A stretch of 64,000 bases of DNA, taken from the NCBI RefSeq assembly GCF_006345805.1, contig NC_043009.1, forward strand, positions 35,712,001 to 35,776,000, read 5' to 3'. Shown here piece by piece: positions 16,805 to 35,412 of the stretch. This DNA comes from Octopus sinensis. Lineage: Eukaryota. The translations under genes were made by a program, and so were the position numbers. The notes beneath the pieces were generated by a model that saw only the letters and a list, made by a program, of their open reading frames with translations, did not search any database and was not told the origin of the DNA. The stretch's first letter is position 1; every line of letters begins with the position of its first letter.

Positions 16805-17133
16805 ATAAATTAAAACTGAACCCCACCCCATTAGCAAATCTAAATAACAGAAATAATCAGTGATAAGCAGTGTCTTTTTTGAAAAAAATTCAGTTACAAC
16901 TGTGATGTTGTTGGTAAAACATGTTCTTTGTCTATCTCCTTATCGTTTTGGTTATTTTGGATAAAAAATCATACAAATGAGTGCTTCGAATTTAACTAAA
17001 TTCTATATTTTTATTCAGCTGAAGATTGCTCTACATTTTAAATTGATGTAATGTTTACATTGTTCAATTAAATGGAGTTGCATGAAACGATCGTACTGCA
17101 TTACCTCTGGATATCCTTGTTGCTTATTTTGAT
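16805..17133 (+). mobile_element. Non-coding PLE pseudo-LTR-like element, family H1
   Basis: Shares sequence with 22381-22635 (-) and 34975-35412 and carries a canonical hammerhead. Confidence 0.8.
17013..17101 (+). ncRNA. Type I hammerhead ribozyme motif, family H1 (long stem II)
   Basis: ATTCAG-CTGAAGA(17019-25)-[58-nt hairpin-forming stem II]-GAAA(17084-87)-CGATCG-TA-CTGCAT. The core is canonical and stem III is palindromic. Confidence 0.8.
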
Positions 17134-17139
17134 TATGTA

Positions 17140-17325
17140 GCCACTACACACATTTTTCTCACCTTGTTCTCTCTTTGTTTTTTTTTCTATGTCCCTTTCT
17201 GTAGAAGAGCGTAGGCTCGAAACGTAAAAGACTTTTTTCAATTCCTGAGCGTTATACTAATACATCTGTTTGTTTTGTACACCACCTGTCTTCGTCTTTT
17301 GTTTTTTTTTTTGTGAATCCTCCCC
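17140..17325 (+). mobile_element. Putative PLE pseudo-LTR fragment with variant hammerhead at 17195-17230
   Basis: CTTT-CTGTAGA-A-GAGC gtag GCTC-GAAA-CG-TA-AAAG. A second copy lies at 2385-2580 (-). Confidence 0.6.
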
Positions 17326-17652
17326 TATATATATATATATATATATATGCATGTATATGTATGTATGTATATGTATATGAAGGTTATTTGAACTTTTGAT
17401 TATATAAAAATTGTAATACACGCATATACACCCGCAGACACGTATCTCTCTATGTTTATAATGATAAACAGCTTATAATCGCAGTGAGATATATTTTCCT
17501 GAAAATTTTACTGTTGGACCCTAGGGCTCGATGGATTTTGACACAGTATATTGGTATATCTAATTACATCGCATGTGGAGTTAGATTAACACATAAATGA
17601 AGTAACTCAGGAAAACAAACTGAGCCATGTCGAAACGTATAGCAATTATAAA

Positions 17653-17920
17653 GACAGACAGACAGACAGACAGACAGACAGACAGACAGACAGACAGACA
17701 GACAGACAGACAGACAGATAGATAGATAGATAGATAGATAGATAGATAGATAGATAGATAGATAGATAGATAGATAGATAGATAGATAGATAGATAGATA
17801 GATAGATAGATAGAAATATAGATAGATAGATAGATAGATAGATAGATAGATAGATAGATAGATAGATAGATAGATAGATAGATAGATAGATAGATAGATA
17901 GATACATAGATAGATAGATA
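17653..17920. repeat. Compound (GACA)n(GATA)n microsatellite
   Basis: Direct reading. Confidence 0.99.
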
Positions 17921-18434
17921 ATTTGGCTGGCTAATTCGCAATTTTACAACCCGAAAGCAGAAATATGTACGTCACTAAAGTGACGAAGGTCACTAATCGG
18001 TACCAATATTGCTAGAAATAAGATTCAAAACAACTCAATAGCTACAGAACTCACTATCTTAATGACTGACAAGATCCCTACGGCAGCAGATATATCCAGA
18101 TCATCGATGATTTTGCATGGGTGGTTCTCACTGCGCCTAAGGTTAAACTCAGCTTGCCTTGTCAGTTTATAAGATTTCCGTTGAAATCATGAGCTGATTT
18201 CATAAACGGTAAAAGTGAGAATTATTCATTCCAATGTAGAGATATCACCTTAATTATATTGTAAAAAATAAAAGAAAGACTCTTGGTCTTTCTTTCTTTT
18301 TCTTTTCTTTTTTGTATGAGTGTGACAGGATATGTGAATGTGTATGTGCGAGTGTGTACACGCATGTTTATGTATATGTATCATTATGTGTGCGTACACA
18401 TGTAGATGTGCGCGTGAAAGTGTCTGCACCTGTG

Positions 18435-18608
18435 TGACCCATTAGCATTCAGATTACTTTGTTAAATGTATTGCTTATATATTCACGTTGTTTTGAATTA
18501 ACCACGCATTATCGTGTAGCTTCGAGATTTAAACATAGTTGTTTGTTTTTAGAATGTAGCGTAGGTGTGGGAGGTCATATCTGGCCGGTTTAAATGTTTA
18601 AGGGTTAA
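18435..18608. mobile_element. Degenerate TTAA-type (piggyBac-like) MITE
   Basis: Left end TGACCCATTAGCATTCA versus right end TAAATGTTTAAGGGTTAA, an imperfect TTAACCC...GGGTTAA terminal inverted repeat. Confidence 0.5.
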
Positions 18609-32500: not shown

Positions 32501-33062
32501 TAATATAAATTTGTTTGAAATTTTATTTCTATTATTTTGTCCAATCCCTGTACATACCGATAAAGTTTTGCTTATAGATACCAATATATACACGCATTTC
32601 CCGCGTATACATTACATCTAATCGTCCACCTCGGCCATGTTGTTAATATAGCCCCGCAGCATGATATAATGATTAAAGACTCAAAATTATTTATGCTTAT
32701 AAGTTGAGGAAATAACCATTAAAATGATTATATCAGTGGCTAGTGTATAAAAAAACGACCATATCGGTAAAATTAATTATTAAGTACATAATTATAAAAA
32801 CATAATTATAATTACGTGGGCTGGAATGTCAGCGCCTATACGCTAGAAGTAGTCGACAATACCTACAATCTACTCTAAATTTGTTCTCTATTTATAACCT
32901 AAAACCGAATGTGAGGTAATGAGCAAGAAGATTTACAAATTTCGGATAATCCTATATCTTAAGATTTCGTGCGCTGTAATAAAGATTAGTTTGCACTCCT
33001 CACTGGAGATAAACCGCCAATATACAAACAACAAGAATGGAAAATTCTTCGATGTTTCGAGA

Positions 33063-33515
33063 GCAATGTAGGTGTTTATAACACCCTCAGTCATATTTAA
33101 TGACGGTGATAGTTCTCCTTGCTGGTACACATTTGTTTACTGCTACCTAAGTAAATAATTTGTATACAAATTAGCTATTCGCTAAATCACCCATGGCGTA
33201 GACATATATACAATACAGAGAGTGATCATTGTCCGGAATCAGCCGAGTCGGGTCGATTCCACTGAAGAGGCTACGGCGAAAGCCGAAATTAATCGATCAG
33301 TCTGGGAATGTACAGATTGCTGCTTTTGGAGCTATTACGGTCATTGTCAGCATATATGTATCCAATTATGTGCTTCGACTGCGGCAATAGAGCGTTTTGC
33401 TCTTATATTTCTAGCAATGCAGGTGTTTATAACACCCTCATCATATGCAATGATGGTTATAGTTCTCCCTGTTGATACACATTTGCTTATTGCTGCCTAA
33501 ATAAATTATATATAT
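33063..33515 (+). repeat. Diverged ~105-bp direct repeats (33063-33165 and 33414-33515) bracketing a hammerhead, consistent with a tandem pseudo-LTR or retrozyme-like unit of ~350 bp
   Basis: GCAATGTAGGTGTTTATAACACCCTCA...GCTACCTAA is repeated as GCAATGCAGGTGTTTATAACACCCTCA...GCTGCCTAA. Confidence 0.75.
33256..33309 (+). ncRNA. Type I hammerhead ribozyme motif
   Basis: TTCCA-CTGAAGA-GGCT acggcgaa AGCC-GAAA-TTAATCGATCAG-TC-TGGGA. The core is canonical, the cleavage triplet is GUC, and stem III is near-palindromic. Confidence 0.8.
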
Positions 33516-33827
33516 AATTTACCAATGTGTGCTTGCGTAAGAATATATGTATCTACGTTATTATTGCTGTTTGTTGCCTGATACAAAGTAGTTCCATCCG
33601 TGACTACTACGTTTTAATTTTCAAATATAGTGCGGGAATTCTCCGCGATACCGAAATGTTCTATCCCTGGGATTTATTCATAGATGTCCCAGCTTGTCAA
33701 TCGCGCCTGTATTTATATCCAATGTTCTTCCTTTAATAGCACATTAGGTTCATATCTGAGGCAGATTTTGCTGCTATTTCCAGCAAACTGAACGGCTGCT
33801 ATCAACTCTGATACCAGAATTGTTCGA

Positions 33828-34260
33828 AGTAGTAGTAGTAGTAGTAGTAGTAGTAGTAGTGGTGGTGGTGGTGGTGGTGGTAGTAGTAGTAGTAGTAATA
33901 GTAGTAGAAGTAGTAGTAGTAGTAGTAGTGGTGGTGGTGGTGGTGGTGGTGTGGTGGTGGTGGTGGTGGTGGTGGTAGTAGTAGTAGTAGTAGTAGTAGT
34001 AGTAGTAGTAGTAGTAGTAGGAATGGTTGTTATGACGGGGAACGATGGTTGTGATGGTAGTGATAGTGATGGGAGTGGCGGTGATAATGTTGGGGTGGCG
34101 GTGATAATAGTGGTGGTGATGGTTTTGATTGTGGTAACGGTGATAGTGATAGTGGTGGTGGTGATGGTGGTGGTGATAGTGGTAGAAATAACAGTGACAG
34201 TGTGGTTATTGCGGTGATGGTAGCAGTGGTTCTGTTGGTTAAGTGATGAGTAACAGCAAA
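33828..34260. repeat. (GTA)n/(GTG)n compound trinucleotide array decaying into cryptic simple sequence
   Basis: Direct reading. Confidence 0.95.
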
Positions 34261-34974
34261 GAAGATTCTCATGGGTTTTAGTGGTGGTATTGAAGTCTCT
34301 CCTTAATATTAATAATTTTCTTTATAACTCTTATCACTCTTCTTGCTGCAGCTACTACTACTACTACTACTACTACTATAACCGGTACGGCTAATGTTGA
34401 GTATGTTCTTGCTACTGTTGCTGTTGCTCCAATTTTTCAAAAGATGTTTCCCAAGACAGAAGGATTAGAAGTGCCCTTGAGCTTGCCAACAGAAGTTCAA
34501 AGATTTCCAGATAATTCCATCAACATCTCATCTTTACTGGCATTTTTCAGCAGAATATCACTGGAGGTCTAAACATTAACAACAACTGCAACAATAGCAA
34601 CACTAGCAACAACTTCATCCAAACTAACAATAATTGCAGAAAAACGACAAAGAGGACGACAGCATTAACTGTAATAGCAACAAAAGAAACAAGAACAAGC
34701 AGTGTAACAACAATATCAACAACAGAAGAAAAAGTATTAAGTGTAGCTGTCAATAGTTTTTATTGTCAGAATCATAATAAAAATGGAGCAGGGGAGAGTG
34801 TCAGGAACGGAAATACCACAAGTCGAAATGGAATATGACAAGAGCAAGGATAAAAGTTACATACTTTAAGGAAAAGAGGCCTAGGATATACACTGAGCTA
34901 ACCAAAGATGTTTTACATAAATATGTACCGACATATGTGTATATATATATATATATATATATATATATATATTA

Positions 34975-35412
34975 TCAAAATAAGCAACAAGGATATCCAG
35001 AGGTAATGCAGTACGATCGTTTCATGCGGCTCCATTTAATTGAGCAACGCAAACATTACATCAATTTAAAATGTAGAGCAATCTTCCAGTAATTCCTGAC
35101 CCTTCCCAGTAATTAAAACTAAATAATAGAAATAATCACTGAAAATCAGTGTCTTTTTTTTAAAAAAATTTCAGTTACAACTGTGACGTTGTTGGTAAAA
35201 CATGTTCTTTGTCTATGTCCTTATCCTCTTGGAGATTTTGGATAAACTTATACTAATGTGTCCTTCAAATTTAATTAAAAACTATGTTTTTGTGCAGCTG
35301 AAGATTGTTCTACATTTTAAATTGATGTAATGTTTGCATTGTTCAATTAAATGGAGTCGCATGAAACGATCGTACTGTATTACCTCTGGATACCCTTATT
35401 GTTTATTTTGAT
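34975..35412 (+). mobile_element. Family H1 element with an inverted partial copy at its 5' end, inserted in (AT)n
   Basis: 34975-35089 is the reverse complement of ~35298-35412. (AT)n lies on both flanks. Confidence 0.88.
35292..35380 (+). ncRNA. Type I hammerhead ribozyme motif, family H1
   Basis: GTGCAG-CTGAAGA(35298-35304)-[long stem II]-GAAA(35363-66)-CGATCG-TA-CTGTAT. Confidence 0.82.

Follow-up and report, generated by a model that had tools for sequence, protein, structure and literature searches.

It is known that Penelope-like elements (PLEs) of the Hydra clade are defined by a DKT motif, a CxCx5C linker, the lack of a CCHH motif and (TA)n insertion targets (accessible part of 10.1101/2021.04.23.441226); the same source gives an inverted, 5'-truncated partner copy as typical of PLE insertions and states that the role of the hammerhead ribozyme in PLEs bearing an endonuclease (EN) is unclear. 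In the available portions of other papers, a dimer model has been put forward for PLE hammerheads (PMC4209133; PMC6765202), the Hydra hammerheads have stems of 3-7 bp and loops of 3-10 nt, with many U.U at the base (File S2 of PMC8557442), and U.U at position 10.1-11.1 is known in natural hammerheads (PMC3088659; File S2 of PMC8557442). In a PLE of Anolis, two 3' ends past the hammerhead represent two internal start sites of the reverse transcriptase (RT), hammerhead mutants still insert in vitro, and cleavage needs protein (PMC11167929). The present analysis concerns a repeat family with a long-armed hammerhead, found in 64,000 nucleotides of Octopus sinensis DNA (contig NC_043009.1, positions 35,712,001 to 35,776,000; hereafter the window, i.e., the whole stretch analysed). 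Its members are 5'-truncated 3' ends (pseudo-long terminal repeats, pLTRs) of a protein-coding Hydra-clade PLE. Four copies are present in the window, whose features are the following:

16526-17139 (+): copy 1, 5'-truncated PLE 3' end, with the end of the 3' untranslated region (UTR), the hammerhead and about 40 nt past the cut site
17013-17101 (+): type I hammerhead motif of copy 1, with one helix I mismatch (U.C); helix I 5' strand 17013-17018, core 17019-17025, helix II 17026-17083, GAA 17084-17086, palindrome ACGAUCGU 17087-17094, predicted cut after A17095
22381-22626 (-): copy 2, 5'-truncated 3' end with a complete hammerhead, then adjoined by a TA-rich microsatellite
22410-22498 (-): hammerhead motif of copy 2, predicted cut after 22416
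34939-34972 (unstranded): (TA)n sequence, left flank of the composite insertion (copies 4 and 3)
34973-35086 (-): copy 4, inverted and 5'-truncated, fused to the 5' end of copy 3; it starts at the core G5, without the helix I 5' strand
35105-35412 (+): copy 3, 5'-truncated 3' end with a complete hammerhead, stopping about 38 nt past the cut site
35292-35380 (+): hammerhead motif of copy 3, predicted cut after 35374
35411-35467 (unstranded): (TA)n sequence, right flank of the same composite insertion

The evidence for the parent element comes from a DNA search of the genome G000 (2.72 Gb), which gave 2,424 first-look candidates, 40 of which were scored. The genomic copies have a common 3' end and scattered 5' start points, and their homology extends more than 5 kb upstream, into an open reading frame (ORF) for RT and EN. 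A walk upstream in two steps, on the hammerhead strand, leads to a GIY-YIG domain with CNC-x5-C ahead of it and, in locus L064, to a broken RT in which motifs A, B, C and E are recognisable. The order in the element is RT, CxCx5C linker, GIY-YIG, a 3' UTR of 2-2.7 kb (2.1 kb in L064, about 2.7 kb in L061) and the hammerhead. When the RT region of L064 was used as a query, the same hammerhead was found directly 5' of the ORF in L068, L069, L092 and L093, where 184 nt separate the cut site from the ATG downstream; the motif therefore lies in both pLTRs of a PLE. The T-rich upstream region, in which a six-frame reading revealed no ORF on either strand, is a 3' UTR with degenerate internal repeats; at L061:6200-8400 these repeats of the window family are about 65-72% alike.

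RT and C-terminal GIY-YIG are encoded by a single ORF, broken in L064 and present as long open frames in L157, L159, L160 and L161. DKG is changed to DKT (PADKT in the window-family copies L068-L070 and in sister families), the CxCx5C linker is present, the EN has no CCHH motif, and (TA)n targets are seen both in the genomic 3' flanks and around window copies 2, 3 and 4; hammerhead-bearing pLTRs, partial tandems, the inverted 5'-truncated copy and the tail complete the Hydra-clade anatomy. A by-eye comparison shows that the ORFs agree motif by motif with the Hydra proteins in the available part of the PMC8557442 supplement, and the nearest named proteins are from Argonauta. The RT matches weakly a retron RT structure (E 6e-4), and Pfam gives no RT or EN domain at threshold. 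The EN region also served as a query and gave 30 loci, 75-100% identical and of mixed subfamilies; at their EN catalytic positions the expected residue occurs in 28 (Y), 28 (Y), 20 (G), 17 (R), 24 (H), 27 (E) and 28 (N) cases. The commonest residue being intact at all seven positions, the source element was autonomous. A dead endonuclease in the window family, considered since the Gly was changed in the three first-seen copies, was ruled out by its presence in 20 of the 30 loci. The sister families have open frames of 842-1124 aa with the same long-arm motif, and L157+L158 comprises two pLTR-ORF-pLTR units, in which successive cut sites are 4.44 kb apart. The ORFs of L157-L166 contain Asn-rich low-complexity stretches between RT and EN and span 840-1120 aa, against about 700 aa in relatives. 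A splice acceptor just 5' of the core or of the AUG was also considered and dropped, the AG not being kept in all families.

As for the motif itself, an original prediction, made from the letters of the sequence, had recognised three complete hammerheads and a truncated inverted one. All of them lie where they had been placed, within repeats longer than then delimited (those listed above; the extent of copy 1 was defined by blastn against the long genomic copies L012, L032 and L092). Every complete copy has CUGAAGA (at 17019 (+), 22492 (-) and 35298 (+)), a 58-nt insert, as proposed for stem II, GAAAC GAUC GUA and a helix I of 3-6 bp; the core, the GAAA, the GUA triplet and the single helix I mismatch of the copy at 17013 were thus all found again. 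The pattern matches three times in the window and never in 200 dinucleotide shuffles, and its exact form 3,463 times in the genome versus once for the reversed control. The CUGANGA / GAA / A15.1-U16.1 / H17 core with helices I-III is that of a type I hammerhead, and the predicted type, the link to Penelope and the dimer-type helix III were all correct; "canonical" was too strong a word, since pair 10.1-11.1 is U.U in two window copies (G.U, then U.U, in the copy at 22410) instead of G10.1-C11.1, and helix III is of only 2 bp. The terms "non-coding" and "non-autonomous or retrozyme-like" are not supported, the longer copies carrying the RT and GIY-YIG ORF on the hammerhead strand, upstream of the motif, with the EN catalytic residues intact as the commonest state over the 30 loci.

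The three complete window monomers do not fold better than shuffles (z 0.09, -0.26 and -0.34); helix II by itself does so in a family representative (z -2.4, mononucleotide shuffles). Rfam, which the original prediction had suggested, proved uninformative: 35240-35410 gave no hammerhead match at E<=10, and none of eight loci, including short-arm hammerhead controls, gave one at the gathering score; as the controls are also blank, the result for the window copies is non-discriminating. On the whole window (E<=1) there were 205 matches, the 150 listed being microsatellite-driven, with no hammerhead among the matches listed, and a general repeat search of the window was likewise swamped by microsatellites. 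Contigs of three presumed-RNA runs and one DNA run cover the stretch, and among what was listed for them neither a joint nor an end coincides with the cut site; contigs cannot show ends, strand or level.

Other repeats occur in the window. The GIY-YIG end of another Hydra-like PLE lies at 42612-43466 (+), and about 145 nt after it comes a hammerhead-like motif (43603-43670, +), which is degenerate and has an insert of 31 nt. A broken Hydra-like PLE fragment at 31690-32467 (-) is 50-60% identical to the L161 family protein, and two short frames, at 41671-42021 (+) and 37742-38122 (-), resemble by eye a Penelope-type RT thumb and are unmatched in tblastn. A local 97% duplication (12963-14933) and another dispersed repeat family (28281-28814 with 53942-54480) are unrelated to the hammerhead family.

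The ends of the insertions were then compared with the predicted cut site, positions past which are given as positive numbers. Copies 4 and 3 entered (TA)n as a single insertion, copy 4 being the inverted and 5'-truncated partner, an arrangement that also occurs in L005, L020, L068, L071 and others. Among 90 distinct hits of at least 80% identity, a sample partly biased toward copies with the +35 region, the 3' end lies no more than 10 nt from the cut site in three, at +30 to +49 in 39 and at +120 to +149 in 34, six continuing into the ORF and eight ending elsewhere. In the 19 hits of loci found with the UTR only, one end is at the cut site, two are at +20 (one of which is cut by the locus edge), seven at +32 to +42 and nine at +121 to +159. 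Throughout the genome, four copies pass from the cleavage triplet straight into (TA)n versus 11,142 continuing into helix I, with a pattern that detects only ends abutting a clean TA run. The two main 3' ends thus lie beyond the hammerhead, near +38 and at +121-144, and not at the cut site, so that the insertion template was likely an uncut or re-joined RNA. On these sequence grounds, the hammerhead cut likely does not make the insertion end, and the mobilisation of an RNA with a ribozyme-made 3' end, as proposed in the original prediction, is not borne out. Five copies (L055:3185 and L264-L267) end at the cleavage site or one base before it and run into (TA)n, three of them as fold-backs; they are possibly rare traces of cut RNA templates, or the outcome of TA microhomology.

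The long helix II is not limited to the window family. When loop 3 is left free, the pattern matches 14,684 times genome-wide with inserts of 44-74 nt and 3,147 times with inserts of 8-38 nt (17 for the control in each case), a ratio of about 4.7 to 1; descriptors capping helix II at a few base pairs would therefore miss most of these hammerheads. Among the first 100 matches listed for each insert range, the 20 loci fetched as distinct types by eye comprise 19 long-arm ones and one short-arm array. The 110 distinct long-arm motifs of loci and window were grouped into 32 clusters, one of which (window 8217-8315) is probably due to chance and was kept in the counts. A proximal helix of at least 3 bp closes the insert in 28 of the 32 (shuffle mean 3.7, maximum 11), and all 32 inserts are more stable than the shuffle mean, 19 of them with z<-2 (mononucleotide shuffles). 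The first pair of helix II (10.1-11.1) is standard in 18 clusters, being G-C in 11. An internal loop or bulge usually follows the proximal helix of 3-5 bp, where loop 2 normally sits; therefore, the loop contact may be kept rather than replaced. The longest arm seen, at L161:9039-9158 (-), is an 85-nt helix II (-38 kcal/mol, z -6.3) placed after a 960-aa open frame.

In an alignment of 13 rows (12 representatives and one window copy) with a hand-drawn structure, 88.1% of the cells are paired versus 76.4% when shuffled (0 of 500 shuffles reaching it) and 26-51% when slid; 11 of the 24 pairs changed on both sides, distributed as 4/6 in helix I, 6/9 in proximal helix II and 1/7 in the tip hairpin. 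In the window family, for 20 hits found with the UTR, variation is somewhat lower in the core than in the flanking sequence (4/240 vs 27/539 changes, p 0.03). The selection signal is stronger between families than within the window family, and inserted copies decay. The hammerhead is very probably real and under selection in the source lineages, and the window copies are almost certainly 3' fragments, now dead, of a PLE of the Hydra clade.

A palindromic loop 3 is found in 25 of the 32 clusters and comes in nine kinds, a result that dimers would lead one to expect; nine is the safer number, because the clusters are related. In ViennaRNA predictions the active dimer lies 12-15 kcal/mol below two active monomers for five sequences out of five, and it is the cofold minimum for two young families (C and E). 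A full unit also has a pair of hammerheads in cis, separated by 4.44 kb in L157+L158. The prediction agrees with the dimer model for PLEs, as far as the available text of PMC4209133 and PMC6765202 goes, and the hammerhead is quite likely dimeric. A second RNA domain is predicted between the cut site and the AUG, common to 12 copies of several families and formed by an outer helix (about +18 to +27 with the region of the AUG), a hairpin of CACC/GGUG and a helix of 9 bp (+97 to +105 with +163 to +171); 7 of its 26 pairs are changed on both sides, a modest support. Each of the two clusters of 3' ends lies in an unpaired segment immediately after the 5' strand of one of these helices, and the domain might therefore be a candidate platform for the start of reverse transcription. 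One example of the domain, bracketing both clusters as its equivalents do, is L026:1350-1536 (-).

The explanation that we hold to be probable combines PLE pLTR ends, insertion from uncut RNA, paired hammerheads cutting separately, and an arm acting as stabiliser or handle. By analogy with Poseidon of Anolis, a transcript running from one pLTR through the ORF to the next would hold two hammerheads, the RT-EN protein would nick (TA)n, and reverse transcription would start inside the RNA, about 38 or 121-144 nt past the uncut hammerhead, often stopping early and leaving short copies like those of the window. The 8-nt palindrome might bring the two hammerheads together, and their cutting would be a distinct, regulated step, serving release from a read-through transcript, circularisation or decay. 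The ordinary catalytic job would fall to the proximal 3-5 bp of helix II, and the distal 35-75 nt would most likely stabilise this weak proximal helix; to the idea that the distal arm may also be a handle for the element's own protein, assisting folding, we give even credence.

Several results weigh against this combined explanation. Pair 10.1-11.1 is mismatched in 14 of the 32 clusters, the tip hairpin has its single doubly changed pair out of seven, the middle of helix II has no single alignment register across families, and RNAalifold alone recovers no more than helix I and the tip hairpin, with the core wrongly paired. In the window copies the active dimer lies 3.9-6.5 kcal/mol above the cofold minimum, so that misfolding or loss of activity may have befallen these old copies. 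Among the loci examined, the ORF of the window family was never intact, the family being about 10% diverged and broken. In one set of loci, 18 of 20 are short copies with no ORF within 6 kb; many divergent long-arm families being seen only in this form, their PLE link is inferred. Lastly, re-ligated circles would read through the cut site too.

This last point bears on transposition via a ribozyme-cut and re-ligated circular RNA, in which cleavage would be obligatory even though the inserts read through the cut site. The route has been proposed for PLEs (in the accessible text of PMC4209133), and the clear selection on core and palindrome across families, as well as the partial-tandem layout giving two hammerheads per transcript, would agree with it; the genome cannot separate a circle from an uncut tandem RNA. 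In the only PLE assayed so far, loss of catalysis by mutation leaves insertion in vitro normal, and the cut site is not an end point of any RNA read (available part of PMC11167929); we regard the circular route as rather unlikely. It is extremely improbable, instead, that the family is a stand-alone, non-autonomous and retrozyme-like one of about 300 bp, moving as ribozyme-processed RNA: most copies are indeed short and non-coding, and some of them could be re-mobilised in trans, but the 5' ends are scattered, the homology runs for more than 5 kb into the RT-EN ORF, the ends lie off the cut site, no tandem arrays occur among the fetched loci, and the true tandem retrozyme-like arrays of this genome have a different, 14-nt arm (L186).

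The length of helix II might also be an innovation of the ribozyme's own, its internal loop or distal arm docking on helix I or on the dimer partner in place of the loop 2 contact and giving fast, protein-free cleavage. The loop or bulge that most families have after the proximal helix, the recurrent AG/GA, AAU/UAA and A-rich 3' strands, the clustering of arm lengths at 44-69 nt and the tip hairpin, which is the best conserved part in the clade of the window, are all consistent with docking; yet loop sequences vary between families, the arm reaches 85 nt, no conserved partner is apparent by eye in distal helix I, and the short-arm Hydra hammerheads presumably work without a long arm, so that docking appears doubtful. 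The conserved tip hairpin argues in turn against an arm that is a tolerated by-product, i.e., one small inverted duplication in an octopod loop 2, kept paired only to spare the core. In addition, none of the 10 ORF-linked families examined in the clade has reverted to a short arm, and arm deletions occur in single copies, none having been seen as amplified families. A by-product can be entertained only tentatively, even if all the ORF-linked long-arm families fall in one clade with two Argonauta proteins, for which one origin is enough, the sequence and register of the arm middle vary freely, and the 3' UTRs and linkers of these elements are expanded too.

Going beyond the combined explanation, one may speculate that the arm of 45-85 nt binds the element's own RT-EN (or docks on the dimer partner), switching cleavage on, that the nine palindromes keep the dimers of different families separate, and that the second RNA domain sets the two RT start sites; we regard this joint reading as possible at most. 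If it were true, young intact families would make the purpose of PLE hammerheads directly testable. The window copies themselves are ordinary dead fragments; the genome supplies natural variants of a single unusual form by the thousand, sister families whose open frames are long and whose copies are nearly identical, and a count according to which the cut site almost never marks an insertion end.

The distribution of the arm was also considered outside this genome. Among 77 Hydra-like metagenome loci (from the best 80 of 408), 59 have a sense-strand hammerhead, always with an insert of 10-29 nt even when up to 100 were allowed. In a quick, midpoint-rooted tree of 40 RT rows, which leaves out named Hydra references and 49 metagenome loci, the 10 long-arm rows of G000 join two Argonauta proteins (SH-aLRT 100), known from the protein alone, apart from the 28 short-arm rows. 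Compared with related elements of other animals, the arm has two to five times their length, and it is a lineage-specific variant. No description of the long-arm form was found in the literature searched; outside that literature, Lunse et al. (on PLE hammerhead dimers) may list long-arm variants, and the supplement of bioRxiv 10.64898/2026.07.22.740005 may bear on novelty.

The comparisons that follow refer to the available portions of the papers cited. Animal non-LTR retrozymes (PMC7229834; bioRxiv 10.64898/2026.07.22.740005) share with the octopod family the type I hammerhead and the dependence on dimers, and HHR_Amex2 of the axolotl, a retrozyme, also has U.U at the base of helix II; retrozymes are, however, tandem non-coding units of 150-450 bp, whereas the octopod family derives from a coding element, of which it is a truncated end, and no such array of the window family was present among the loci fetched. 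Tandem units of about 353 bp, each with a short-arm (14 nt) hammerhead and a ACUCGAGU palindrome, do occur at L186 (G000:C1:105633500-105637500); they are a classical non-LTR retrozyme-like family, unrelated to the long-arm one. PLE-X1 of Selaginella (File S2, PMC8557442), with its two motifs and a long loop 2 (29-35 nt) flagged as deviating by its authors, is a partial precedent for long arms, from single families of an unrelated, EN-deficient lineage of a plant. Poseidon PAc of Anolis (Frangieh et al. 2024, PMC11167929) has, like the octopod family, two 3' ends beyond the hammerhead, AT-rich targets and insertions that read through the cut site; it belongs to another PLE clade, its hammerhead overlaps the ORF start, the octopod one being 170-210 nt upstream, and it also differs with regard to the octopod tail of about 85-105 nt.

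The minimal, dimeric PLE hammerheads of Cervera and De la Pena (2014, PMC4209133) are of type I as well, with a short palindromic helix III, and lie in both pLTRs of elements whose copies mostly stand alone or form close inverted pairs. A helix II described there as "larger than usual" has 6-8 bp, whereas the octopod arm is a multi-helix structure of 44-85 nt, and, unlike in them, G10.1-C11.1 is found in only 11 of the 32 octopod clusters. The Hydra-clade PLEs (Craig et al. 2021, PMC8557442 / 10.1101/2021.04.23.441226) share DKT, CxCx5C, a C-terminal GIY-YIG without CCHH, (TA)n targets, a hammerhead near the 3' end and the frequent U.U at the base of helix II. The published Hydra elements are mostly shorter than 3 kb, the octopod units having linkers rich in Asn, 3' UTRs of 0.7-2.7 kb and a total length of 4.4 to about 6-7 kb; Hydra-1_Obim, with an arm of 7 bp and 8 nt, has a different N terminus from the long-arm family. 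Helix III is mostly of 9-10 nt in the published Hydra hammerheads and an 8-nt perfect palindrome here, and helix II, consisting there of 3-7 bp and a loop of 3-10 nt, spans 44-85 nt in the octopod family. The anatomy of the PLE was already known, and what is new here is the form of the ribozyme, i.e., a helix II of 44-74 nt across many sister families.

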